This document shows positions 1,072-10,876 of a DNA stretch of 10,876 bases, in pieces; within the stretch, counting starts at the first letter, position 1; each line of letters opens with the position of its first letter. The position numbers and the translations under genes were made by a program. Under the pieces are notes generated by a model. That model saw nothing but the letters and a program-made list of their open reading frames with translations. It had not been told where the DNA came from and searched no databases. The stretch is taken from NCBI GenBank assembly GCA_035531115.1, contig DATKTP010000242.1, forward strand, positions 1-10,876, in the 5' to 3' direction. Source of the DNA: Candidatus Deferrimicrobium sp. (GTDB lineage: Archaea > Asgardarchaeota > Lokiarchaeia > Helarchaeales > HEL-GB-A).

Positions 1072-1260
1072 TTATTCTAGGACCTTTTCAATGATAAGCT
1101 TATCGTCTTCAATCCTTATCGAAACATAAGTACCCTCTTGTACCTTAAATTCATTGGCAATCTTACTTGGGAGGACTACCGCAAGACTATTACTTATTTT
1201 AAAGACTTTCCTGACTTCACGATTCGCTGACAATTTGAATTCCTTCTTCTGCCATATCAC
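1072..1260 (-). CDS. AbrB/SpoVT (MazE-like) family DNA-binding protein
   Basis: 62-aa ORF. SNSLAVVLPSKIANEFKVQEGTYVSIRIEDDKLIIEKV fits the SpoVT-AbrB swapped-hairpin pattern (h-h-h-P-x-x-h...G-x-x-V-x-h...h-h-h-x-K). The start is either GTG 1260 (44-nt overlap with the upstream gene) or TTG 1233 (17-nt overlap, AAGGA about 7 nt upstream). Confidence 0.75.
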   Translation of the reverse strand: MIWQKKEFKLSANREVRKVFKISNSLAVVLPSKIANEFKVQEGTYVSIRIEDDKLIIEKVLE

Positions 1261-3070
1261 TTAACCCTGTGACAATGACATACTCGGTAACATCTTTGAT
1301 GTAATTTTTAATTATTTCGAATCTGGAGGGGTCATAGCTGGTAATGACTTCATCAATCACGAAGAAGGGAAAGGTGGGAACGAATTCTTCTTTCGCGGCT
1401 ACGAGGACTATTAAGGCAAGGGTGATGCGTTCGCTGGTGGATAACGCTTCAAACGGCCATTTATCAATGATCTTCCCCGCTTTTATCCTAGTAATAGAAA
1501 TCCTTCCATCCGTTTTAAGTTCTATATCTTTAAAATCCTTAAATTGCAATTCTTCGTAAATCTCATTGGCTCTTCGCTCAAATCTTTTGCATACAGAATC
1601 AATTAATTCGTCTTTCCTGATTGCAAGGTGCGAAATTAACCCTTCAATGAACCTGATCCGTTTTGTTAGCGCATCAGCGTCTTTGGTTTTTCCTCGCAGG
1701 GCTTCAATGTTTTCCTCATCCGAGATCGTTCTCTGCTTCAAGATTTCAATATTATTAATCAACTTTTCGCGTTTTTGCCACGTTTCAAATGTAGCTTTTT
1801 CTGAAAATTGGAAGAGCTTCTCTATTTCTGCTTCATACTTAGTTTGTTCTTGTTCCAATTCGGCTATTTCAGTTCTAAGTTTGTTCTTATCAAGCTCTCG
1901 ATTTTGAAGTGTGCTAGTTGTTTTGCGAAGATCAGTTTCAACTATGCTCAATTGCCTTTGTGATTTCTCTAGTTCGGTTTTTTTTCGCCCTAAATCTTCT
2001 ATCTCTCTAGTTTTTTGAACGATTTTATTCCCTAAGTCACTACTAGCTTTTTCATTTTTTCGTTGCCAATCTTGTAAATCTTTTAATGAAAGCGTCTTAC
2101 CACAGGCATAACATTGTGTTCCACCAGGAGCTAAGTCACCGTGTCGTTTAATCTTAACCCAATTATCATTTGCCGATTTAATTGCAGCTTGACACTTTGT
2201 ATTCTCGGTTTCCAGGGCTTTCAACTCTTGGTTGGTGTTGTTGGTGCTTTTCACAACTTTTTCAATTTCTTTTTCGATTAATGGATAATCAGCTTTTATT
2301 TCATCGACCAATTCTTGCTTGGTTTTGATTTGTTCCGCTAAAGCTTTAATTTGATCTTCTAAACTATCGAAATTCCCTTTCTTCTTCCGCAATTTGTCGT
2401 CTATTGCTCTCTTTTCTCCTATTTTTTCGTGGTACTTGTTCCTCATTTGTTGATCCGCTAACGCGTCTGTTTCATCCACTTGTGGTACGGTTTCAAGCTC
2501 TTTTTCCAATTCTGCAATTTCGTTTCTGCTCTTAAGCAATCGATCTTGTGTCATTTCCAATTGAGTTAAATCATCTCTGAAAATTTGGTGCTGTCTCAAG
2601 TAGTTTTTTTTCATTTTGTCTAAAGAGGAAGTAATAACATCAAAGAGATTACTATCAGAGATATTTTCAATAAAAGTCCTAATAGGTTTGCCCCGAAGTA
2701 TCTGATTTATGAGATCGTTATCGGGCGTTGCAAAACTGGTTAATTGCGCTTTATTCCCTGCTTCTAATGAAACATTTCCTTCAAAGCTGTAGAGATCGTT
2801 TCCAGCGCGTCTAAACCGTTTGTTCCAATCTATATTTTGGTTTGTCAATGAAATTTCGATAGTATCGTGCGCCCCTGTAAATAAATTCATTAAGAATCCT
2901 TTATTTTTTAAGTCAGGGTCATCCATTGTGAATAATTCTAACGCATTTATCAAACTCGTTTTTCCCGTAGCATTGGGAGCTTTAACTACATTCAACCCTT
3001 TATCAAATTCAAAAATTTCTTTATTGGCAAAAATACCGACATTTTCCACTTCTAACTTCAATTTACTCAT
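1217..3070 (-). CDS. Rad50/SMC-like ABC ATPase with long coiled coil and central CxxC zinc-hook-like motif
   Basis: 617 aa. The N-terminal head carries Walker A (VVKAPNATGKTSLINALE). About 400 aa are heptad-like, K/E/Q-rich coiled coil, interrupted at mid-length by GGTQCYACGKTLSLKDL (compare Rad50 hook C-P-x-C-G-R-x-L). The C-terminal head carries a signature-like LSTSERITLALIVLVA and Walker B FFVIDEV, then YVIVTGLSD where Rad50 has the His-switch (V-S-H-D). The start ATG overlaps the upstream stop (ATGA). Confidence 0.9.
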   Translation of the reverse strand: MSKLKLEVENVGIFANKEIFEFDKGLNVVKAPNATGKTSLINALELFTMDDPDLKNKGFLMNLFTGAHDTIEISLTNQNIDWNKRFRRAGNDLYSFEGNVSLEAGNKAQLTSFATPDNDLINQILRGKPIRTFIENISDSNLFDVITSSLDKMKKNYLRQHQIFRDDLTQLEMTQDRLLKSRNEIAELEKELETVPQVDETDALADQQMRNKYHEKIGEKRAIDDKLRKKKGNFDSLEDQIKALAEQIKTKQELVDEIKADYPLIEKEIEKVVKSTNNTNQELKALETENTKCQAAIKSANDNWVKIKRHGDLAPGGTQCYACGKTLSLKDLQDWQRKNEKASSDLGNKIVQKTREIEDLGRKKTELEKSQRQLSIVETDLRKTTSTLQNRELDKNKLRTEIAELEQEQTKYEAEIEKLFQFSEKATFETWQKREKLINNIEILKQRTISDEENIEALRGKTKDADALTKRIRFIEGLISHLAIRKDELIDSVCKRFERRANEIYEELQFKDFKDIELKTDGRISITRIKAGKIIDKWPFEALSTSERITLALIVLVAAKEEFVPTFPFFVIDEVITSYDPSRFEIIKNYIKDVTEYVIVTGLSDMAEEGIQIVSES

Positions 3071-3267
3071 GGTTCATCCCACCCATCCGCATATTTGTTG
3101 AGAATTTCCAACACTTTATCTTCGGCCACGTTGGGGAGGTGACCCGATTTTATTTTGTGTTGCTTGACGATTGAGAAGATTTCTCTCTCACACTCAACGA
3201 ACACGTCAGCTCCAGATTTCGAGCTTCCTGTAATATTTTCCTTGACTTTGGTTTTTCTTCTAGACAT
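3067..3267 (-). CDS. Small hypothetical protein (66 aa), translationally coupled to the Rad50/SMC-like gene
   Basis: ATG at 3267 is preceded by GGAGGT 6 nt upstream. The stop TGA overlaps the ATG of the next gene (ATGA at 3067-3070). No recognisable domain. Confidence 0.6.
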   Translation of the reverse strand: MSRRKTKVKENITGSSKSGADVFVECEREIFSIVKQHKIKSGHLPNVAEDKVLEILNKYADGWDEP

Positions 3268-3527
3268 CTACTAACCTCCAAAACTTTTTCAGGTATATCC
3301 CATTCGTGTAAAGGTTCAGCTACGAAAATATCTAAACCCTCATCGAATCTTTTCCTTAAACTCCATAACATCGCTAAAATTTCGCCATTTGATTCAGTTA
3401 AAAATACATCTGAACTTAATTTTTCGATAAAAAACTTATTTATATCTTGACGTCGTTTATCTTGATGCCAGCTCCAAATTATATCTTTAACTGTTGTATT
3501 TCTTATTTTTATTATTAAAAAGGTCAT
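3150..3527 (-). CDS. Hypothetical protein; 3' end uncertain (out-of-frame overlap with the 3067-3267 ORF)
   Basis: The track ORF 3150-3542 starts at TTG. I prefer the in-frame ATG at 3527 (MTFLIIKIRNTTVKDIIWSWHQDKRRQ...). The last roughly 39 codons overlap the next ORF in another frame and end in a low-complexity tail (SSQSSSNTK). The true stop may therefore differ, or there may be a frameshift. No recognisable domain. Confidence 0.45.
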   Translation of the reverse strand: MTFLIIKIRNTTVKDIIWSWHQDKRRQDINKFFIEKLSSDVFLTESNGEILAMLWSLRKRFDEGLDIFVAEPLHEWDIPEKVLEVSRCLEEKPKSRKILQEARNLELTCSLSVREKSSQSSSNTK

Positions 3528-3543
3528 AAAAAACCATCTCAAA

Positions 3544-3568
3544 AAATGTCGTCACAGTGACGACATTT
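3544..3568 (-). terminator. Perfect 12-bp-arm palindrome (hairpin) followed by a T-tract inside the operon; possible attenuator/terminator or protein-binding palindrome
   Basis: Plus strand is aaatgtcgtcac-a-gtgacgacattt. On the minus strand the hairpin begins at the last base of the AAA+ stop codon and runs into TTTTTT (rc of 3541-3546), then GAGATGG and the next start. Confidence 0.4.
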
Positions 3569-4278
3569 CACAATTCTTTTGACAGGATCGTGTCAATGTA
3601 TTGCTCGGTAATCAGTTTTTCAATCTCCCTAATTGTTTTGAAATCGCCCTTATCAATTTGCGATATCATTTGATCCGCATCCATCTGCAACTGTTTACAT
3701 TTGTTTTCAGCAATAATTTTGAGAGTTTCTTTAGTAGGAAAGGGAAATTCGATAGGATACAATCTGTCTTTAACTGCTTTATCTATTAATTCAAATCGAT
3801 TCGTCGTTAAAATAACTGAAATCTTAGATGTATCTACATTATCTAGGCAATGGAAGAATACGTTATTTTGAGCGATGTGCCACGATTCCCCCTTGATCCA
3901 ATCTCTTGTCGGAAAGACTGACTCACAATCATCTATGATAATAATCACGCGACCATAATTTTCTGCTTTCTTAAAAATTTCCGCTATCTGCCTCTCCGAT
4001 TCACCATAAAGAGATCGGGCAATATCTGAACCATCCACAAAAATGTAGGTAAAATTCAGAACATTGGCAAGAACTTTCGCTATGGTGGTTTTCCCGGTTC
4101 CCACCTCACCAAAAAAAATAAATCCTTTAATACCGTCCTTGATTTTGTATTTTTGTTGATAGTAAATAATCTTCTGGACTTTTTCGAGAATCGCAAGATA
4201 TTCTTGTCCAAAAACGGTATTTTTGGAGTAAGGATTATCTATCGGTTTTATGATGTTCAACTCTTCTTTTTTCTGCAT
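3568..4278 (-). CDS. Minimal classical-clade AAA+ ATPase (single AAA module, no recognisable N-terminal substrate domain)
   Basis: 236 aa. Motifs: Walker A GEVGTGKTT; pore-loop-1-like SLYGESERQI (compare K-aromatic-V-G-E-S-E-K of Vps4/FtsH/proteasomal ATPases); Walker B IIIIDDCES; sensor-1 ILTTN; SRH-like NRFELIDKAVKDR; C-terminal helical lid. GAGG lies in the 13-nt spacer upstream. Confidence 0.9.
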   Translation of the reverse strand: MQKKEELNIIKPIDNPYSKNTVFGQEYLAILEKVQKIIYYQQKYKIKDGIKGFIFFGEVGTGKTTIAKVLANVLNFTYIFVDGSDIARSLYGESERQIAEIFKKAENYGRVIIIIDDCESVFPTRDWIKGESWHIAQNNVFFHCLDNVDTSKISVILTTNRFELIDKAVKDRLYPIEFPFPTKETLKIIAENKCKQLQMDADQMISQIDKGDFKTIREIEKLITEQYIDTILSKEL

Positions 4279-4291
4279 TTAATACCGCCTC

Positions 4292-5149
4292 TTAATTTGT
4301 AGATCTTTTCTGTTGTCGAGATTGCTGTCTTGCGCGCATACGAATTAAGGCGCGTTCGTTCCATAATTGGATGAAATTCTGAACGTGTGGTGAAAAAATA
4401 ATTTTATTTCCATCTTTCTTAACTATCATTCTGATATCGGCATCTTTTACATTATTTCGCTCGATTGCCGTCGAGAAGCGATAGTAGGGGAAGCCCCGGT
4501 GAGTAAACTCGGCTCTAAGGTCTTCCAATAAGAGCTCGCCACCGTTATTTGAGGCAATTAAAATGCCAAAAATTAGGGGAATAAGTGCACTGATTCCTTT
4601 TTTTTCGATTCCAAGAGCAATCATCTTTCCCAGTGCGCTACCGAAGATTTCGTGTTCGATCCCTTTCGCTTGAATTTGGTCAAGGAAGTTATCCCAAATG
4701 GGGGTGAGTCGAACAAAAGCGGAAAACGGAGAATCACCTTTATTGTGGATAATTTCGAGAAATCCGTAATCTTTTAATGTTAACAATTTTTCAAAGATTT
4801 TTTTCAAGCTCCCGCATGCAGATCGGATAGTCATTATTGAAATCTTACCTTCCTCCGCTTTTTTTATCCGATCTTCAATTTCCCCGACTCTACCTGTCCT
4901 TTCGTATTGTATTCGATTTGTATCAAGATCGGCTCTAAGGGATTTTGCCTCAAATCGCTTTTTCAAGGTTAATATAAAGATAGTATTAATGATATTTTCA
5001 ATAGTTTGTAAGAGGGTGTATTCAGTATAACTGCTTAGTGATTGAACTCCAAACAATAGATTTATATTTTGAGTCTCTAGCAACTCTTTGATTATTGTGG
5101 CCAAGACTTCAACGAAATCTTGGTTTTCAGGGACATCCAAACCATCCAT
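4292..5149 (-). CDS. Uncharacterised protein, paralog B of the 5408-6214 product
   Basis: 285 aa, alignable end to end with the 268-aa product of 5408-6214. Shared blocks: LQTIENIIN, ERTG, SAC, L(S/T)PIW, GKMIALGIEKKGI, (P)(F/Y)xRF, ER-x-N, D(I/L)RMI. Basic C-terminal tail RMRARQQSRQQKRSTN. The start ATG is 2 nt after the histone stop, with GAGGAGAG immediately upstream. Confidence 0.85.
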   Translation of the reverse strand: MDGLDVPENQDFVEVLATIIKELLETQNINLLFGVQSLSSYTEYTLLQTIENIINTIFILTLKKRFEAKSLRADLDTNRIQYERTGRVGEIEDRIKKAEEGKISIMTIRSACGSLKKIFEKLLTLKDYGFLEIIHNKGDSPFSAFVRLTPIWDNFLDQIQAKGIEHEIFGSALGKMIALGIEKKGISALIPLIFGILIASNNGGELLLEDLRAEFTHRGFPYYRFSTAIERNNVKDADIRMIVKKDGNKIIFSPHVQNFIQLWNERALIRMRARQQSRQQKRSTN

Positions 5150-5151
5150 TA

Positions 5152-5388
5152 TTATCTCTCCTCTGGTTCAAGGGTGTACTTAAAAATTTCCTTTACCGCA
5201 TCTCGCACATCGGTATCGCGAATGTTTGTTCGACCAGATAAGTTTGCTAATTTCACAGCTTCACCGGCGATCATCTCTGCATGCTCCGTTAGAACATCTA
5301 AAAACAGCTTTTTTGCTTCTTTTGAGACCTGTTTTGCGCCGCTATTTTTTAAAATTCTATTAACCGCCGCTATACTAAAGTAACTCAT
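5152..5388 (-). CDS. Archaeal histone-fold protein (HMfA/B-like) with short acidic C-terminal extension
   Basis: MSYFSIAAVNRILKNSGAKQVSKEAKKLFLDVLTEHAEMIAGEAVKLANLSGRTNIRDTDVRDAVKEIFKYTLEPEER aligns without gaps to HMfB as I recall it ([66 protein letters not shown]). The track start is TTG 5391. I prefer ATG 5388, which has GAGGT 7 nt upstream. Confidence 0.9.
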   Translation of the reverse strand: MSYFSIAAVNRILKNSGAKQVSKEAKKLFLDVLTEHAEMIAGEAVKLANLSGRTNIRDTDVRDAVKEIFKYTLEPEER

Positions 5389-5407
5389 CAATAAAACCTC
5401 GCTTTTA

Positions 5408-6214
5408 TTAATATCCTAATTGGCGTAAACGCTTCTGAACTCTCTTATACCATTGATAGACTGCGACTGTTGAATGTTTCGCAAAGTAAACACGTTCCTC
5501 TGTTTTTGAGGGGATCATACGAAGGTCGGGATGTTTTTCGTTATCACGTTCAAGGACGCTGGCAAATCGGTGAAATGGAATGCCCTGTTCAACGTATAAC
5601 TCTTGAAACTCGCCATGTGATATCCAACCATCATCAAATGCCCTTTTCAAACTGAGGATGAGGGGTTTCAACGGTTTAATCCCCTTTTTCTCAATGCCCA
5701 ATGCGATCATCTTCCCAATTGCGCTACTGAAAATGTCGTGTTCATACCCCTGATTATGAATGTGATCAATCGTCCCATTCCAGATGGGAGATAATTGTAC
5801 AGTTGCAGAACCACCAGGAGTCTTTTCGATGATGATGAATTTTTCCTCGTGTAACTTATTCAGTTTCGCTTCAACGTCGGATAAGCCCGTGCAAGCACTG
5901 ATTAGATTGGATAAAAATATTTTGCGAGCCTCTACCCGTGCAAGCTTTTGCTGATACAGTTCTAATTGTCCCGTTCGTTCGAGTTCTTCTTTATTAGCAT
6001 CGATGTATTTGGTGAGACGGGTTTTCTCGTCAATGAGGTGGATATTTTGGTCGAAAAGTACATTAATAATGTTTTCAATGGTCTGAAGCGGCGACCAGAT
6101 TGTAAAACAGCTCAAAGATTGAATTCCCCTTAGTAATTCATAGTTCCCCTTTTCTAAACCCTCCCGAATTAACGGAAGTAACTCTTTAATGTAATGTTCC
6201 CAAACTGTACTCAT
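5408..6214 (-). CDS. Uncharacterised protein, paralog A (first gene of the operon)
   Basis: 268 aa. Shares the conserved blocks listed for 4292-5149. Basic C-terminal tail WYKRVQKRLRQLGY. AGGGGA lies about 6-8 nt upstream of the ATG. A long AT-rich non-coding region lies upstream. Confidence 0.85.
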   Translation of the reverse strand: MSTVWEHYIKELLPLIREGLEKGNYELLRGIQSLSCFTIWSPLQTIENIINVLFDQNIHLIDEKTRLTKYIDANKEELERTGQLELYQQKLARVEARKIFLSNLISACTGLSDVEAKLNKLHEEKFIIIEKTPGGSATVQLSPIWNGTIDHIHNQGYEHDIFSSAIGKMIALGIEKKGIKPLKPLILSLKRAFDDGWISHGEFQELYVEQGIPFHRFASVLERDNEKHPDLRMIPSKTEERVYFAKHSTVAVYQWYKRVQKRLRQLGY

Positions 6215-6489
6215 ACTTATCCCCTAAATTTTTCATAAAGAACATAAAATTTACCTATGAAGGTTATGGAGTTTATGTATATTGCATATATTTCTTATAT
6301 GATTTTATGTTTAACCTCGAATTATTTTTATCTTTTTAGTTATAGGTAGTAGTATATTCTATTTTAGAAAATTTAAATATTTCTTTTGTTTAAAGGAATA
6401 GAATGTTTAAATTATTCTAATAATTATAATAGATTCTGAATAAATATTCCTAAAAAAATTTTATAAACATAACTAGTTTAGAAAGTCGA

Positions 6490-6496
6490 TTATATA
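6490..6496 (+). promoter_or_regulatory. TATA-box-like element (TTATATA) positioned for a leaderless plus-strand transcript
   Basis: It is centred about 27 nt upstream of the ATG at 6520, which opens a 32-codon ORF (MTIKEINENLIWKGKPYIRIPSIIGLVYEVTI, 6520-6618). A purine-rich BRE-like stretch (gaaag) lies just upstream. It is divergent from the operon. The region is very AT-rich, so chance TATA-like strings are common. Confidence 0.25.
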
Positions 6497-7149
6497 CGCT
6501 ATGTGGCTATGGACATAGAATGACCATAAAAGAAATTAATGAGAACCTAATTTGGAAAGGAAAACCTTATATTCGGATCCCTTCAATTATTGGGTTGGTT
6601 TATGAAGTTACCATCTGATGAAAATCTTTATTTTGAACTTGAAAAATTACCGAAGTGTATTGACCTGAAATAAGAATTTCCAATTGTTGTTAATTTGAAA
6701 TGCAAAATATAACTTAAAGAAAAGCGTATTGGAGCTATATTTATCGAAAGATTCATACGTTCAACATAGAAAAATCGATATTTGGCAGTAACTTGAGTGA
6801 CTCTTTTATAAATTGCATTAACTTCTTTTCTAAAATATCGAGATATTCGAGGATATTCTTTTTATAAGGCAATATTGGAATTATTATTTCATTCGGACCG
6901 ATTTCGTTCAATTCTTTATCTAATGGTATCGATGAATCCAAATTTCCAAAAAGTGTGTTATAATGGACAATAATATCCCTTATTCTGATTGCTTCTTGAA
7001 TCCATTGCGTGATATTATTTTTAATGAGATCTATAAGCTTAAATCTGTTTATATAAAGAATATTTTGAATTCTTCGATATTTCTAAAGTATTTTTTAAAT
7101 AAAAGTTGTTTTCTAGTAAAAAGTTGTTTTTTTCCCAAATAATTATTGT

Positions 7150-7971
7150 TTAACTAGATTTTTCTCGTTTTTGAATAATCTCAAAGTGCCGTGCCACTTG
7201 ATCATAATCGCTTTTATAGATATGGAGACTATTGCTGAAATCCACGTATTGGATGAATTCGAGGTTCAAACTGCTTGATAACCATCTCCCAAACTCAGTA
7301 AAACCCAAAATATTAGCCCCAACGGCTTTGTACAAATCGCGGCTCCTCCATGTTGTCTCTAGAACCATATATTTATTTTCTATAATCCGAATCCAGAGTC
7401 TTTGTAAACATGGAGCACCAGAAATAATTAAATCTTTATATGGCGCCCAAGTAGTTACCTGCAATTTACGACTAATTGGTTCTTCTTTCGCTTTTTCAAT
7501 GAGCATTTCTATTTGATTAATACCTTCATCTGCCTTGAACTCTTTTTCGGTAATTCCATCAAAGATTTTGATGGTGGGTCTCTTCTTTTGTTTCAAGAGT
7601 TCTGCATGTTTGGGCTGCACCAAGCCCCATGAAAACAGCCTCTCATGGTACGTGTATGATTCTACGCCCTCTAAAACCCGGTGATCCATATCTCCATCAA
7701 TCAAATCCCGCACATATTGTTTTTCGCGGTAGGGCTTTTTTTTATCTGGACCGGTCACAAACATGGAAACACTGACAAAATCTTTCCGGGAGAAACGGGG
7801 TTCTTGCAAAGGATTCATGACATTAACTAACACGGAAGCTTCTTTGCTTAATTCATCGGAATAATGCTGTTCAATCTCAATACCTTTGTACCAAACCGCT
7901 TCCACGGCTTTTTCCCAAGCCTCGCCACAAGTTTCAGCCTCAACAAAGAGGATAGGTAAATGGGGTATCAT
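7150..7971 (-). CDS. thyA: Thymidylate synthase, ThyA family (divergent archaeal type)
   Basis: Alignable by eye to E. coli ThyA core motifs: [10 protein letters not shown] ~ [33 protein letters not shown] ~ [34 protein letters not shown] ~ LAPCHAFFQF (catalytic Cys); [13 protein letters not shown] ~ QRSCDVFLGLPFN; NSLHIY ~ DTHLY. The track start is TTG 7980. I prefer ATG 7971, which has GAGGT 10 nt upstream. Confidence 0.85.
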   Translation of the reverse strand: [273 protein letters not shown]

Positions 7972-8208
7972 TTTCTTCAAGACCTCATCCTAGGAGTTAT
8001 GAATCTACGGGAATGAAGGATCTATAAAAATTTTATTCTCATATTAGAAGAAAAATTGCAGAAAAATTGGAATTTTATCGGTGGCTGTTTCCCTTTTCCC
8101 CCTTTTCTTCAAAGAATTTTTATTTTAATAAAGTAAAGTTTTAAAGAAGTGATAAGAATGAAACCAAATGAAGACTCGTTATAGAAAACATTTATTCACG
8201 TGGATTGA

Positions 8209-8243: not shown

Positions 8244-8338
8244 GGGCCCATAGCGTAGTTGGATAACGCGCAGGCCTTCGGACCATTCGATGGGAAGAGA
8301 GCCTGAGGTCCAGGGTCCGAATCCCTGTGGGCCCGCCA
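8244..8338 (+). tRNA. tRNA-Arg (anticodon TCG) with canonical-position intron; CCA encoded
   Basis: Hand fold: acceptor GGGCCCA/TGGGCCC; D arm GCGT-AGTTGGATA-ACGC; anticodon stem CAGGC/GCCTG with loop C-T-TCG-G | 18-nt intron (8282-8299) | A; variable AGGTC; T arm CAGGG-TCCGAAT-CCCTG; discriminator G; then CCA. Confidence 0.9.
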
Positions 8339-8904: not shown

Positions 8905-9013
8905 GCCTCGATAGTGTAGTCCGGCGATCATCTGGGACTGTCACTCCCAGGACTGACGAAAACGCCGTTTTGGTCAGTGGGATACCCGGGTCCAAATCCC
9001 GGTCGGGGCGCCA
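8905..9013 (+). tRNA. tRNA-Asp (anticodon GTC) with a non-canonical intron in the variable-loop region; CCA encoded
   Basis: Acceptor GCCTCGA/TCGGGGC (one G-U). D arm GTGT-AGTCCGGCGA-TCAT, the weak D stem typical of Asp tRNAs. Anticodon arm TGGGA-CTGTCAC-TCCCA. Then 36 nt (8950-8985) where 4-5 are expected, containing the hairpin ACTGAC-G-AAAAC-gcc-GTTTT-G-GTCAGT. T arm CCGGG-TCCAAAT-CCCGG. Discriminator G, then CCA. Confidence 0.8.
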
Positions 9014-9038: not shown

Positions 9039-9132
9039 GGGCTCGTAGCTCAGCTAGGCAGAGCGTCGGGCTTTTAAATCAGAAATTGATAAAGAAACCC
9101 GATGGTCGCGGGTTCAATTCCCGTCGAGCCCG
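9039..9132 (+). tRNA. tRNA-Lys (anticodon TTT) with canonical-position intron
   Basis: Acceptor GGGCTCG/CGAGCCC; D arm GCTC-AGCTAGGCA-GAGC; anticodon stem TCGGG/CCCGA with loop C-T-TTT-A | 20-nt intron (9077-9096) | A; variable TGGTC; T arm GCGGG-TTCAATT-CCCGT; discriminator G. No encoded CCA. Confidence 0.9.
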
Positions 9133-9520
9133 TCATCCTTACCTATTTGCCAATATTAACTTTTCTATTCCCTATTTTATAATTGGAGCATTTTTATTCG
9201 AATATTAATCATAAACCTCGGTTTACGTCCTAATTAAGGTTGAATTATAAAAAAGTAACGCAAATAACTCAAGAAGAAAGGTAAGAAGCAGATTCAAATA
9301 TTTCGCTATAACTTTAAAAGTTGCAAGAAATTCGAAGAATTTATAAGGAAAATAATTTTTTATAATGAAGAAATACCTATCTAATTCCTTTTTAATAGAA
9401 ATTTAAAAATAACAGAAATTCTTTAATTAGAGAAAATTATGAGGTCTGAGAAGCAATATTGCTTAATAATTTATTATTTTATCTAATCAGAAACCTGTTT
9501 GGCTATAGTGGTGTATCCAA

Positions 9521-10876
9521 ATGACGAGTAGTAATGAAAATTTAAAGTTAGATAATTGGGTTTTAATGGGCGCTTTCTTTAAAGAAAAAGGGTTGGTGCG
9601 CCAACATTTAGATTCATATAATGTATTTATTGAAAAGACAATCCAAGAAGTAGTTGATGAAACTGCGCGAATTGAACCCGATATCCCCCAGTACTTCGTG
9701 AAGCTCGGGCGAATCAATATAGGTGATCCCACGATACGGGAAGCAGATGGATCTGTTAAACCCATATTCCCCATCGAAGCCCGTATCCGCAATTTGACAT
9801 ATTCGGCGCCCCTGTATTTAGAAATGATCCCGATTCGTAAAGATGAACGGACCGGAATTGAAATCGAAGGGGAAGTAGTAAACGTCTATATTGGTCGACT
9901 TCCAATCATGCTTCGGTCCAATGTCTGTCTTTTGAAAGATATGAGTGATGAGGAATTAATTAAACATGGAGAGGATCCCTTGGACCCGGGTGGTTATTTC
10001 ATAATAAATGGGTCTGAGCGGGTTCTTGTTACGCGCGAAGATTTAGCACCCAATAGGATATTGAGTGAGGAAGCAAGTAAAAGTTTATCTGCGAGTTATG
10101 TAGGAAAAGTTTTTTCAACTTCACACGGGTTTAGAGCCCCAGTTACGCTGGAGCAGCGTAATGATGGGACCCTTCGAATATCATTTCCCTCAGTTCCAGG
10201 AAAAATTCCTTTCGCGATTTTAGTTCGAGCGCTTGGTTTAGTGACGGATAAAGAAATTAGTGATGCAATTTCAGATGATCCACTTGTTAGGCGCCAGTTA
10301 ATAGCTACATTAGAGGCCGCTGCGCCCATTTATATCCCAAAGGATGCGCAAGGTACCATCGATAATGCGTTAGACTATATTGGAAAGCGAGTTGCGGTAG
10401 GGCAGACAAGGGAATATCGATTACGGCGAGCTGGTCAAGTTTTAGATAGATACCTACTTCCCCACATTGGCAGAACCAATGCAGATCGATTAAAAAAAGC
10501 GTATTATCTTGGACAGATGGCCCAGCGTATCGTAGAATTACAGATTAATAAGCGTATTCCAGATGATAAAGATCATTATGCAAATAAACGACTGAAATTA
10601 GCTGGAGATCTTCTTACCAGCCTATTCCGTGTCGCTTTTCTTAATCTTACTAGAGATATCAAATATCAACTCGAACGAACAGCCGTCAGAGGGCGGGCGC
10701 CAAATATTAAAACAGCAGTCCGCGCAGATGTCGTTACAGAACGATTACGCCATGCTTTAGCAACGGGCAATTGGGTAGGAGGTAAAGCAGGGGTCAGTCA
10801 ATTACTTGATCGGACTAATTATATTTCTGCTTTAAGTCATCTTCGTAGAGTCGTTTCTCCTCTTAGCCGAAGCCAG
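9521..10876 (+). CDS. rpoB: DNA-directed RNA polymerase subunit B (Rpo2), N-terminal 452 codons; continues beyond the window
   Basis: Not in the track because it runs off the right edge. Hand translation from ATG 9521: MTSSNENLKLDNWVLMGAFFKEKGLVRQHLDSYNVFIEK...EARIRNLTYSAPLYLEM...GEDPLDPGGYFIINGSERVLVTREDLAPNR...DDKDHYANKRLKLAGDLLTSLFRVAF...ATGNWVGGKAGVSQLLDRTNYISALSHLRRVVSPLSRSQ. These are signature blocks of archaeal/eukaryotic second-largest RNAP subunits. GGTG lies about 9 nt upstream of the ATG. Confidence 0.95.
   Translation, partial: MTSSNENLKLDNWVLMGAFFKEKGLVRQHLDSYNVFIEKTIQEVVDETARIEPDIPQYFVKLGRINIGDPTIREADGSVKPIFPIEARIRNLTYSAPLYLEMIPIRKDERTGIEIEGEVVNVYIGRLPIMLRSNVCLLKDMSDEELIKHGEDPLDPGGYFIINGSERVLVTREDLAPNRILSEEASKSLSASYVGKVFSTSHGFRAPVTLEQRNDGTLRISFPSVPGKIPFAILVRALGLVTDKEISDAISDDPLVRRQLIATLEAAAPIYIPKDAQGTIDNALDYIGKRVAVGQTREYRLRRAGQVLDRYLLPHIGRTNADRLKKAYYLGQMAQRIVELQINKRIPDDKDHYANKRLKLAGDLLTSLFRVAFLNLTRDIKYQLERTAVRGRAPNIKTAVRADVVTERLRHALATGNWVGGKAGVSQLLDRTNYISALSHLRRVVSPLSRSQ

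Follow-up and report, generated by a model that had tools for sequence, protein, structure and literature searches.

SMC-related proteins specific to archaea (ASRPs), the family of coalescin (ClsN) and Sph, were described between 2019 and 2022, and the zinc hook of the family is on record (Yoshinaga, Nakayama & Inagaki 2022, PMC9389158). One member, the Sulfolobales ClsN (Takemata et al. 2019, summarised in PMC11344861), occupies and represses silent chromatin; B-compartment formation and repression have been demonstrated for Sulfolobales only (PMC11344861). Here we describe an ASRP gene from the window, by which we mean the whole stretch of DNA analysed (10,876 nucleotides). Its product resembles the family in its length of about 600 aa and in the order of its parts: Walker A, a coiled coil with a central CxxC, then signature and Walker B. 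It shares with ClsN the zinc hook and a signature of the form LS(S/T)SE, and ClsN also does without the switch histidine, the place reading IITR or IITK. However, the two are only 23–27% identical and belong to separate clades, and no AAA+, X, Y, Z or histone genes (see below) accompany those for ClsN, which stand by themselves some 5–7 kb from the Rad50 operon. Much closer is HGU06440.1 from Bathyarchaeota, in which conserved blocks are near-identical (EALSTSERITLA..., FPFFV.DE..TSYDP and YVIVT) and the neighbours are the same, namely AAA at −2 and, at +1, AbrB (PMC9389158 Table S1).

Three further systems invite comparison. Rad50 and SbcC are likewise coiled-coil ABC ATPases whose apex bears a zinc hook, but the window protein has much shorter arms, LSxSE in place of LSGGE/Q, no His switch and no Mre11 partner. 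LmuB of the Lamassu systems (Salmonella LmuACB, PDB 9hqx/9hqu) is a protein of about 630–650 aa with short coiled coils, to which we found a good structural and a weak profile match; its zinc hook is required for function (PMC10586767; bioRxiv 2025.03.14.643221). Unlike Lamassu, the locus encodes no homologues of LmuA or LmuC, and the partners of its ATPase are AAA+, winged-helix and histone-fold proteins rather than an effector and a middle component. SMC-kleisin-KITE complexes (Smc-ScpAB, MukBEF, Smc5/6, Wadjet JetABC) also join an SMC-superfamily ATPase to small winged-helix partners, and the tandem winged-helix domains and paralogue pair of protein X are reminiscent of KITE dimers. The differences are that the window protein has no hinge domain and that X, Y and Z have no detectable kleisin or KITE homology. 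To our knowledge, a dedicated Cdc48-like AAA+ ATPase is not part of SMC-kleisin-KITE complexes.

Family membership and ATPase head

The gene (1217..3070, minus strand; 617 aa) was identified as that of an ASRP-family coiled-coil ABC ATPase from the ORF list, the NCBIfam model NF045487, an AlphaFold2 model and Foldseek searches. The preliminary description had called it a compact Rad50-like ATPase; by profile comparison it is not a peculiar Rad50. NF045487 ('archaea-specific SMC-related protein') matched at full length (profile positions 1–592 of 593; E 1.1e-86, 291.8 bits), while the next-best family reached 38 bits and the Rad50 equivalog models 15–38 bits against cut-offs of 700–1087. At the level of its sequence the product is shown to be an ASRP, of the coalescin (ClsN)/Halobacterium Sph1/2 family. 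Its score lies 8 bits under the curated 300-bit cut-off; cassette-linked relatives scored 272–365 bits against the same model, five of them exceeding that cut-off, and close relatives with shared neighbouring genes reached 300–365 bits. Rad50 and SMC models gave at most 61 bits. Pfam by itself, with generic AAA_23 and sub-threshold SMC_N matches, was uninformative. A rough neighbour-joining tree of head-domain columns placed the window protein among ASRPs with Rad50 sequences as outgroup, and the AAA-linked ASRP genes formed one branch apart from the ClsN clade. Judged by sequence, then, the protein is a fresh member of an already described family.

A word-indexed protein search returned 10 relatives, and the extreme rarity that this suggested was corrected by an exhaustive HMM search, which found 455 clusters at E<=1e-30. 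The ASRP family is rare and patchy in its distribution, a pattern that speaks against a core housekeeping function. The window itself carries signs of an archaeal host, namely genes for a histone-fold protein, a methanogen-type ThyA and an Rpb2-like RNA polymerase subunit of archaeal type. Its three tRNA genes, at 92–106 nt against a 71-position model, were read as intron-bearing. A viral origin was considered and rejected, with no confirmed match in 2.9 million viral contigs and only generic PHROG matches.

The overall architecture is that of a Rad50-like coiled-coil ABC ATPase, as first proposed, and on this the motifs, the AlphaFold2 model and Foldseek agree; the top structural matches were Rad50, LmuB, Smc5/6 and SMC heads with coiled coils. 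All motifs lie on the minus strand. The Walker A motif or P-loop, APNATGKTS (aa 31–39; 2954..2980), was placed by motif position and by the nine-sequence alignment A1, throughout which it is fixed; nearly all fetched relatives have the form APNAxGKTS. The signature, in its ASRP form, is LSTSE (aa 543–547; 1430..1444). The Walker B motif FFVIDE (aa 569–574; 1349–1366), in which the catalytic E574 is kept, and the D-loop D580 together span 1331..1366. At the H-loop position the protein reads TGLSD (aa 601–605; 1256..1270), without histidine. Residues retained are thus the Walker A lysine, the signature serine, the Walker B Asp-Glu and the D-loop Asp, and alignment A1 is invariant at G36-K37-T38-S39, C320, C323, G324, L543, S544, E547, D573, E574, D580 and R583.

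Profile-profile alignment (hhalign) with Thermococcus Rad50 paired LSTSE with LSGGE, FFVIDE with LLILDE, and YVIVTGLSD with QVIVVSHDE, and an alignment with T. maritima Rad50 gave the same motif pairing. The C-terminal head does align with Rad50 block for block, as had been claimed, including the D-loop and the arginine that follows it. The same comparison bore out that the signature is non-canonical and that the switch histidine is absent: L603 takes its position, with no histidine close by. What did not hold was the reading of these motifs as a degenerate peculiarity of this gene. Among 139 full-length relatives the signature is LSxSE in most, most frequently LSESE or LSTSE, and LSGGE in none, and just 4 of the 139 have a histidine near the switch position. 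On the evidence of these sequences, LSxSE and the absent switch histidine are family-wide ASRP traits rather than degeneration of this gene. With LSxSE and without the H-loop histidine, hydrolysis is probably slow and regulated by partners or DNA, as would suit a clamp and not a fast motor; the suggestion of slow or regulated hydrolysis in the preliminary description, for a clamp or sensor, is reasonable given the missing histidine.

Coiled coil and zinc-hook motif

The AlphaFold2 model (mean pLDDT 83.7) comprises a head and an antiparallel coiled coil. An ascending arm (aa 141–310; 2141..2650, minus strand; DSSP helices 141–194 and 207–310; about 25 nm) leads to an apex loop (aa 311–328; 2087..2140, minus strand), from which a descending arm returns (aa 329–507; 1550..2086, minus strand; DSSP helices 329–422, 425–462 and 465–507). 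The arms are helical over about 170–180 residues each. The preliminary description of a compact, short-armed protein was accurate, the coiled coil amounting to about 370 of the 617 residues. We found no globular hinge, with no SMC_hinge match in the Pfam search and an apex that consists of an 18-residue loop.

This loop holds the motif C320-x-x-C323-G324, of which the CxxC reads C320-Y-A-C323 in the context PGGTQCYACGKTLSLK. Its cysteine codons at 2102–2113 had been singled out as resembling a Rad50 zinc hook in mid coiled coil, and structure prediction agreed on the position. Because the sole break in mid coiled coil is loop 311–328, with the CxxC inside it, the motif is placed at the apex; prediction of a CxxC away from the apex, which would have counted against a hook, did not occur. 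The loop was modelled at pLDDT 53–66, the lowest internal stretch of the model, with lower values only in the C-terminal tail (606–617). In simulations with 4 Cys in 617 residues, the chance of a CxxC anywhere was about 0.02 and that of a CxxC within the apex loop about 5e-4. Of the 139 full-length relatives, 134 carry a CxxC at the centre. Family architecture, together with the biochemistry of Rad50 and SMC proteins, suggests that the hook would bind Zn and dimerise the protein.

A colinear operon and its products

The ASRP gene is the seventh of eight in a minus-strand operon that runs X2, histone fold, X1, AAA+, Y, Z, ASRP, AbrB. Intergenic gaps range from −118 nt (the Y/Z overlap) to +25 nt. 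The arrangement (histone fold) – tandem winged-helix – Cdc48/VAT-like AAA+ – two small proteins – ASRP – (AbrB) is found as a colinear series at about 24 independent loci (the window, L002–L006, L009–L011, L013, L014, L016–L018, L027, L031, L035, L042, L043, L048–L050, L053 and L054). No such cassette accompanies the ClsN-type genes of Sulfolobales, and 19 ClsN-type loci were without it. Published ASRPs were reported to have no consensus neighbourhood (PMC9389158), whereas in this clade the cassette is strictly colinear. This AAA-linked ASRP operon is noteworthy and apparently unreported until now. The preliminary description had also stated that the ATPase has no Mre11 partner. As regards Mre11 this stands: neither the window nor any cassette locus encodes an Mre11-type phosphoesterase, and no Mre11, NurA or HerA gene lies near the ASRP gene. 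Partners as such are not missing, however, since the operon supplies conserved AAA+, winged-helix, Y, Z, histone-fold and AbrB proteins.

The gene at the head of the operon encodes X2 (5408..6214, minus strand; 268 aa), a paralogue of X1 to which it is 38% identical; such a tandem X–X pair was also seen in L010. In an AlphaFold2 model of pLDDT 85.5 and pTM 0.85, X1 (4292..5149, minus strand; 285 aa) is helical at its N terminus, has two winged-helix domains and ends in a long helix. Upstream of the AAA gene, about 10 loci encode a homologue. Foldseek searches with X1 gave nothing below E 0.1, and winged-helix proteins only. Against kleisin and KITE proteins (ScpA, ScpB, MukE, MukF, Nse) there was no significant structural match, MukE appearing at rank 44 with probability 0.11. 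The idea of X as an enzyme or effector gained no support: it has no sequence match in Pfam, NCBIfam, PADLOC, PHROG or PDB, and its structure shows winged-helix domains alone. Between X2 and X1 lies a gene for a histone-fold protein (5152..5391, minus strand; 79 aa; Pfam CBFD_NFYB_HMF, 6.5e-10), with homologues at the same position in L002, L010, L011, L013 and L043.

The AAA+ ATPase (3568..4278, minus strand; 236 aa; Pfam AAA, 1.7e-23) is a single-domain classical AAA+ protein closest to VAT/Cdc48, with VAT (6e-36) and Cdc48 as best PDB matches. Its identity across the cassette loci is 44–60%, the pore loop LYGESE is conserved, and the Walker B motif reads DD in every cassette copy examined. 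The single GTDB match to the gene was a Methanocellales MAG, a relative.

Two small proteins separate the AAA+ and ASRP genes. Y (3150..3542, minus strand; about 125–130 aa) belongs to no known family: Pfam, NCBIfam, PADLOC, PHROGs and PDB gave no match, a profile search of PDB was also blank, and conserved acidic or histidine residues are absent. Y homologues occupy this place in about 20 loci, some of them just weak profile matches. Z (3067..3267, minus strand; 66 aa), whose stop runs 4 nt into the ASRP start, has a homologue of 58% identity at the same position in L001, and its profile also matched L002/L003, L010 and L013. Y and Z might be one gene that a frameshift has split; no similarity of Z to the longer Y of L004/L050 was seen. 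Downstream, the start of an AbrB/MazE/SpoVT-type DNA-binding protein (1072..1260, minus strand; 62 aa; Pfam MazE_antitoxin, 5e-11) overlaps the 3' end of the ASRP gene by 44 nt; this position is also filled in L001, L002/L003 and L010.

Putative function and competing explanations

We consider it reasonably likely that the ASRP acts as an ATP-gated, zinc-hook-dimerised DNA tether which, with its operon partners, would compact or silence DNA. By analogy with its relatives, the N- and C-terminal halves would form a single ABC ATPase head, from which a pair of helical arms, antiparallel and about 25 nm long, would extend to the CxxC loop. Two protomers may share one Zn through four cysteines at the apex, and the heads would engage around two ATP by way of K37 of Walker A, S544 in the signature of the partner and D580 of the D-loop, with E574 hydrolysing the ATP. 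The outcome would be an ATP-gated ring or tether able to hold or bridge DNA. DNA binding could be supplied by the winged-helix, histone-fold and AbrB proteins, and the winged-helix proteins may be KITE-like head-proximal subunits. The Cdc48/VAT-like AAA+ protein, with its threading pore loop kept, probably remodels, unloads or recycles the complex, and we infer physical contact of the ASRP with X, Y, Z and the AAA+ protein. The most likely output would be DNA compaction or silencing, directed either at quiescent chromosomal regions, as with ClsN, or at newly acquired or foreign DNA.

The strongest competitor to a DNA tether is anti-virus or anti-plasmid defence of the Lamassu/ABC-3C or Wadjet kind, in which the zinc-hook ATPase would sense foreign DNA (ends, small replicons) and then activate or release an effector or silence the invader, with the AAA+ protein in a regulatory part like that of TRIP13 in CBASS. 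The PADLOC LmuB model PDLC03859, which has no curated cut-off, matched residues 5–580 (E 3e-16, 57.7 bits), other LmuB models being weaker; yet the ASRP profile reached about 290 bits against these 58. Salmonella LmuB (630 aa) was the second-best kind of structural match in Foldseek (5e-12), and LmuB too combines a length of about 650 aa with a zinc hook and short coiled coils (PMC10586767; bioRxiv 2025.03.14.643221). The Walker B Glu is nevertheless kept here (D573-E574), where LmuB generally has Gln (PMC10586767). PADLOC also matched the AAA+ protein to IetA and TRIP13 models, which we counted for defence; X1, X2, Y, Z and AbrB matched neither LmuA, LmuC nor any other PADLOC model. The conserved core has no recognisable nuclease, protease or other effector domain, X consisting of winged-helix domains and Y lacking conserved acidic or histidine residues.

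Flanking genes bear on the same question. A DarT gene directly follows the cassette in the window, a ThsB-like TIR gene comes right after the ASRP in L011, and in L010 a Schlafen/AlbA_2 protein is encoded nearby, adjoining what appears by eye to be a nucleotidyltransferase. L006 carries a Piwi (pAgo) gene and L042 an IS240 transposase, and the rare and patchy distribution of the family has been read as a hint of an extrachromosomal origin (PMC11344861). These adjoining toxin-type genes vary by locus, however, and lie outside the conserved core, and the search of 2.9 million viral contigs gave no confirmed match. The frequent defence and mobile-element flanks fit either role equally, immune sensor or chromatin organiser. 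Weighing these points, we regard defence as unlikely, though it deserves to be taken seriously.

Far less probable is a cytoskeleton-like or structural coiled-coil protein that acts on cell shape and not on DNA, as was first proposed for Sph1/Hp71 and arcadin-4. Sph1 overexpression changed cell morphology and arcadin-4 associates with a cytoskeleton (summarised in PMC9389158), and relatives of the window protein gave weak arcadin-4 (NF053563) matches. Set against this are the DNA-binding folds of three operon partners (histone, winged helix, AbrB), the intact ATPase motifs and the absence of crenactin or similar cytoskeletal genes from every cassette locus.

Least probable of all, and hardly credible, is a true miniaturised Rad50 orthologue of double-strand-break repair with its Mre11 encoded elsewhere in the genome: the zinc hook and coiled-coil ABC ATPase architecture are as in Rad50, which was also the best PDB sequence match (3qf7, E 3e-4), the best Foldseek match (7zr1) and an hhalign match at probability 99.5 over the C-terminal head (Thermococcus), but the protein falls far short of the Rad50 equivalog cut-offs, has 617 aa against about 880, lacks LSGGE and the switch histidine, has no Mre11, NurA or HerA genes nearby and belongs to a group from which Rad50 sequences stand entirely apart in the neighbour-joining tree, while Sulfolobales genomes possess a genuine Mre11-Rad50-NurA operon besides their ASRP and ASRPs elsewhere co-occur with Rad50 (PMC9389158).

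Returning to the DNA tether with its operon partners, a more far-reaching version seems possible to us, if somewhat doubtful. The AAA-linked cassette may be an unrecognised multi-subunit archaeal SMC-like machine assembled from the histone-fold, tandem winged-helix, AAA+, Y, Z, ASRP and AbrB proteins, with the AAA+ unfoldase as obligate partner of the zinc-hook ATPase, mobile and island-borne, that chromatinises or silences newly arrived DNA. Built from other parts, it would then serve archaea as a functional counterpart of Smc5/6- or Wadjet-type surveillance, and the stand-alone coalescin may have derived from it. Should the cassette products form a real complex, an SMC-superfamily ATPase would be paired with an AAA+ unfoldase of the Cdc48 kind dedicated to it, and we found no account of such an association in the literature searched. 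Since LSxSE and the lack of the H-loop histidine are normal for the family, mechanistic work on ClsN can address both directly. For annotation, the message is that a compact archaeal 'Rad50 without Mre11' is an ASRP and not a degraded repair gene. The cassette would, if its products form a real complex, provide concrete candidate subunits.

Architecture and family of the window ATPase

The minus-strand ORF at 1217–3070 encodes a protein of 617 aa that a preliminary description had presented as a Rad50-like ATPase with a zinc hook, a degenerate signature and no His-switch. Of the four cysteines in its translation, two form C320-Y-A-C323, encoded by exactly the codons proposed for the hook (2102–2113, minus strand). 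The other quoted motifs were also all located: Walker A APNATGKTS (aa 31–39), signature LSTSE (aa 543–547), Walker B FFVIDE (aa 569–574) and, at the H-loop position, TGLSD (aa 601–605). Aligned profile to profile with Thermococcus Rad50 (probability 99.5), the protein matched LSTSERITLALIV to LSGGERIALGLAF, FFVIDEVITSYD to LLILDEPTPYLD, and YVIVTGLSD to QVIVVSHDE. Because of this last pairing, L603 is placed at the position of the Rad50 switch histidine, and the alignment shows no histidine close to it in the window protein, as had been claimed. A phmmer alignment with T. maritima Rad50 gave the same pairing of signature and Walker B. The residues for ATP binding and hydrolysis are intact, the H-loop excepted.

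In an AlphaFold2 model built from nine homologues (mean pLDDT 83.7), helices 141–310 ascend and helices 329–507 return. The sole mid-coiled-coil break is the loop at 311–328, which holds the CxxC and is the lowest-confidence internal part of the model; the motif thus sits at the predicted coiled-coil apex, the placement on which the zinc-hook reading had been made to depend. In a protein of the same composition, a CxxC is expected anywhere with P ~0.02 and inside this loop with P ~5e-4. Searched against the PDB with Foldseek, the model retrieved Rad50 first (7zr1, 7e-17), followed by Lamassu LmuB (9hqx/9hqu, ~5e-12) and then by Smc5/6, SMC, MukB and JetC, a ranking expected for a Rad50-like protein within the SMC superfamily. 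The predicted architecture of head, coiled coil and apex CxxC is conserved.

This architecture is shared with Rad50, but family membership lies elsewhere. The single strong full-length NCBIfam match was the archaea-specific SMC-related protein (ASRP) model NF045487 (E 1.1e-86, profile positions 1–592 of 593), whose 291.8 bits fall 8 short of the curated equivalog cut-off of 300. Rad50 equivalog models reached 15–38 bits against cut-offs of 700–1087, and SMC models ~20 bits. Relatives with the same gene neighbourhood scored 272–365 bits on the ASRP model, five of them above its cut-off. Several blocks, namely IIKAPNALGKTSLIKALEL, EALSTSERITLAVALLIAGK, FPFFVLDELVTSYDPTRF and YVIVTSL, are nearly identical in the window protein and in Bathyarchaeota HGU06440.1, as given in the trimmed alignment of the PMC9389158 supplement. 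The protein thus departs from Rad50 in profile score, in signature and H-loop, in the lack of an adjacent Mre11 partner and in size, while it agrees with ASRPs in all but the small shortfall in score. These profile matches place it in the ASRP family or immediately next to it, so that the Rad50-like description holds for architecture and not for membership. The family, as defined by Yoshinaga, Nakayama and Inagaki (PMC9389158), comprises Sulfolobus coalescin (ClsN), Halobacterium Sph1/2 and ~80 other archaeal proteins, with a zinc-hook motif in 'the vast majority'; the hook in ASRPs is therefore already published.

Motif variation across the family

In a nine-sequence alignment that takes in two Sulfolobales ClsN-type proteins, the P-loop, C320, C323, G324, L543, S544, E547, D573, E574, D580, R583 and T601 were invariant. 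No sequence has H directly after T601; the residue there is G, E, K, A or R. The same pattern was seen in ~40 non-redundant proteins from the fetched loci. When 1.84 billion cluster representatives were searched exhaustively by HMM, 455 clusters matched at E<=1e-30, and motifs were counted in the 139 full-length proteins among the best 150 of these. A central CxxC was present in 134, and any histidine in the aligned H-loop stretch in only 4. LSGGE was seen in none; the signatures were LSESE (42), LSTSE (26), LSSSE, LSASE and similar forms. The degenerate signature and missing His-switch are therefore real, but they are the norm among relatives rather than a degeneration of this gene. We found no discussion of these family-wide peculiarities in the ASRP literature searched.

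In about a third of these best 139 representatives (P0043–P0191) the Walker A G-K is replaced by N-R, and in a similar number, with signature LSESE, the Walker B glutamate gives way to Ser or a gap. By motif, this sub-group is the haloarchaeal Sph type, so it probably cannot hydrolyse ATP. Given so large a sub-group lacking these residues, the window protein ranks among the catalytically better-equipped members. By analogy with H-loop mutants of ABC ATPases, it is reasonable to suppose that ATP turnover may be slow or regulated across the whole ASRP family rather than in the window gene alone.

A conserved operon and its proteins

The ASRP gene (3070–1217) belongs to a minus-strand operon that reads X2 (6214–5408), histone fold (5391–5152), X1 (5149–4292), AAA+ (4278–3568), Y (3542–3150), Z (3267–3067), ASRP and AbrB/MazE-type (1260–1072), with spacing from a 118-nt overlap (Y/Z) and a 44-nt overlap (ASRP/AbrB) to a 25-nt gap. 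The same order recurs on contigs of the closest homologues and in a Methanocellales MAG reached via its AAA+ protein. We extended the comparison by a metagenome scan to 47 further loci, running a profile for each cassette protein on all ORFs of all loci. The cassette (histone fold)-X-AAA+-Y-(Z)-ASRP-(AbrB), with X sometimes duplicated, was colinear in ~24 loci, for example window 1072–6214 (minus) and the homologue-bearing contigs L002, L004, L009, L010, L011, L013, L014, L043 and L050. An AAA+ gene lies 0.4–0.7 kb upstream on the same strand in ~24 loci, that is, in every locus of the window's branch with at least ~1.2 kb of upstream sequence; Y is present in most of these, X in many and the histone-fold gene in six. 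The operon is conserved; ASRP identity within this AAA-linked group falls to 23%, and AAA+ is more conserved than ASRP (44–60% vs 23–56% identity). A profile search of ORFs found no cassette genes in 19 Sulfolobales ClsN-type loci, where the ASRP gene lies 5–7 kb from the Mre11-Rad50-NurA operon. The two groups split cleanly in a rough neighbour-joining tree of head-domain columns, without support values.

Table S1 of PMC9389158 places an AAA/VCP-like/proteasome-type ATPase <=3 ORFs from six ASRPs (Bathyarchaeota, Desulfurococcaceae, Ignisphaera, Thermoplasmales E-plasma and two of Heimdallarchaeota LC_3), while its text sees 'no apparent consensus' in the neighbourhood. We found no published description of the AAA+/ASRP gene association in the literature searched, and the strictly conserved AAA+/winged-helix/Y/Z cassette (plus histone and AbrB), which marks a large ASRP branch, appears to be new. 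In a Methanocellales-type sub-branch, a conserved small gene (L004 4488–4835, L009 4367–4753; 115–128 aa, motif YFAY.NLSKDLKEK.SLY) stands in AbrB's place directly downstream of ASRP. Upstream of X2, the first cassette gene, ~930 bp at 28–29% G+C (window 6215–7149) contain no convincing ORF; the operon promoter presumably lies here, though the stretch is unusually long.

The AAA+ protein (236 aa) is a single classical AAA domain, nearest to Thermoplasma VAT and Cdc48 (6e-36). Its conserved pore-loop-1, A-R-x-L-Y-G-E-S-E, is typical of substrate-threading unfoldases. All six copies aligned (window 3568–4278, aa ~113–120; L002, L004, L005, L006, L009) have Walker B h-h-h-h-D-D-x-E-S rather than the classical D-E-x-D, with aspartate for the catalytic glutamate and a Glu two positions later. 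X1 and X2 are paralogues (38% identical) with no match in any profile library searched. In the AlphaFold2 model of X1 (pLDDT 85.5, pTM 0.85), a helical N-terminal part precedes two winged-helix domains, and a long helix forms the C-terminus; Foldseek returned nothing below E 0.1, the weak matches being winged-helix regulators, DnaD and STK19, with MukE ranked much lower. The 79-aa protein has an HMf-type histone fold, and the 62-aa protein carries a swapped-hairpin DNA-binding domain of the AbrB/SpoVT type. For Y (~125 aa) and Z (~65 aa), no relatives were detected outside the cassette. In five divergent loci (window 3150–3267, L002 2942–3038, L010 7796–7886, L013 3387–3489, L001 157–256), the 3' end of Y and the 5' part of Z overlap by ~90–120 nt, each read in its own frame. 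This could reflect two genuinely overlapping genes, a wrongly called start of Z or programmed frameshifting. Z is absent from L004, L050 and L009; Y is longer in L004 and L050, and no similarity was found between its long tail and Z.

The host is marked as an archaeon by further window features: three tRNA genes, the start of an archaeal RNA polymerase subunit B, with its N-terminus (9509–10876), the gene for the histone fold, and a thymidylate synthase of methanogen type (7150–7980, below the NCBIfam cut-off). The tRNA genes (Rfam; 8244–8335, 8905–9010 and 9039–9132, plus strand) lie between thymidylate synthase and subunit B, and are taken as intron-containing because they span 92–106 nt against a 71-position model; ARAGORN called one of the three only, with an odd four-base anticodon. 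A 5.5-kb contig labelled 'Candidatus Subteraquimicrobiales bacterium' (L002; GCA_030692835.1, JAUYAZ010000133.1) carries the whole cassette with a histone-fold gene; mis-binning of an archaeal contig, or a transfer, is a likelier explanation than a bacterial ASRP. The same ambiguity was raised for three 'bacterial' ASRP matches (PMC9389158).

Genomic context and proposed function

Genes beside the cassette are often defence-like or mobile, an anecdotal association from a handful of loci. In the window, the AbrB gene is followed after 142 nt by a gene for a DarT-type ssDNA thymidine ADP-ribosyltransferase (3–929, minus, running off the left end; Pfam 4e-23, PADLOC DarT 3.5e-16), in a stretch with 25–26% G+C vs ~36% in the cassette. 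The window shows no DarG macrodomain partner; the AbrB/MazE-type protein could be the antitoxin, but its gene is also conserved beside ASRP genes that lack DarT. Elsewhere, the neighbours include a ThsB-like TIR gene directly after ASRP in L011 (defence- or mobile-type genes at 9956–10390 and 11886–14867), a Schlafen/AlbA_2-TPR-S1 protein beside a nucleotidyltransferase-like ORF recognised by eye only in L010 (10125–10502, 11518–13758), a Piwi gene in L006 (17098–17399), an IS240 transposase in L042 (10010–11110), a helicase-metallophosphatase fusion, and a recombinase gene adjoining HGU06440.1. Some loci, such as L042, look plainly chromosomal from ORF translations judged by eye.

These flanks, together with a review's remark that the patchy distribution of ASRPs suggests an extrachromosomal origin (PMC11344861), are why we retain a Lamassu- or Wadjet-like immune role of the cassette as a serious, though less likely, alternative. 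Several points speak against it: LmuA and LmuC homologues are absent, the conserved core has no recognisable effector domain, whether nuclease, protease or other, the ASRP profile score is much stronger than that of LmuB, and the window protein keeps the Walker B Glu where LmuB usually has Gln (PMC10586767).

We instead favour a role on DNA. Two ASRP protomers would pair, joined at the apex by a shared Zn and at the heads by ATP-dependent engagement, forming a tether or ring with ~25 nm arms that could hold DNA. The winged-helix, histone-fold and AbrB proteins may supply or modulate DNA contact, and the AAA+ unfoldase may remodel or unload the assembly. The likeliest output of the cassette would be compaction or silencing of DNA, whether chromosomal or foreign, by analogy with ClsN, a protein that resides on transcriptionally quiet chromatin, represses it and is displaced by transcription (PMC11344861).
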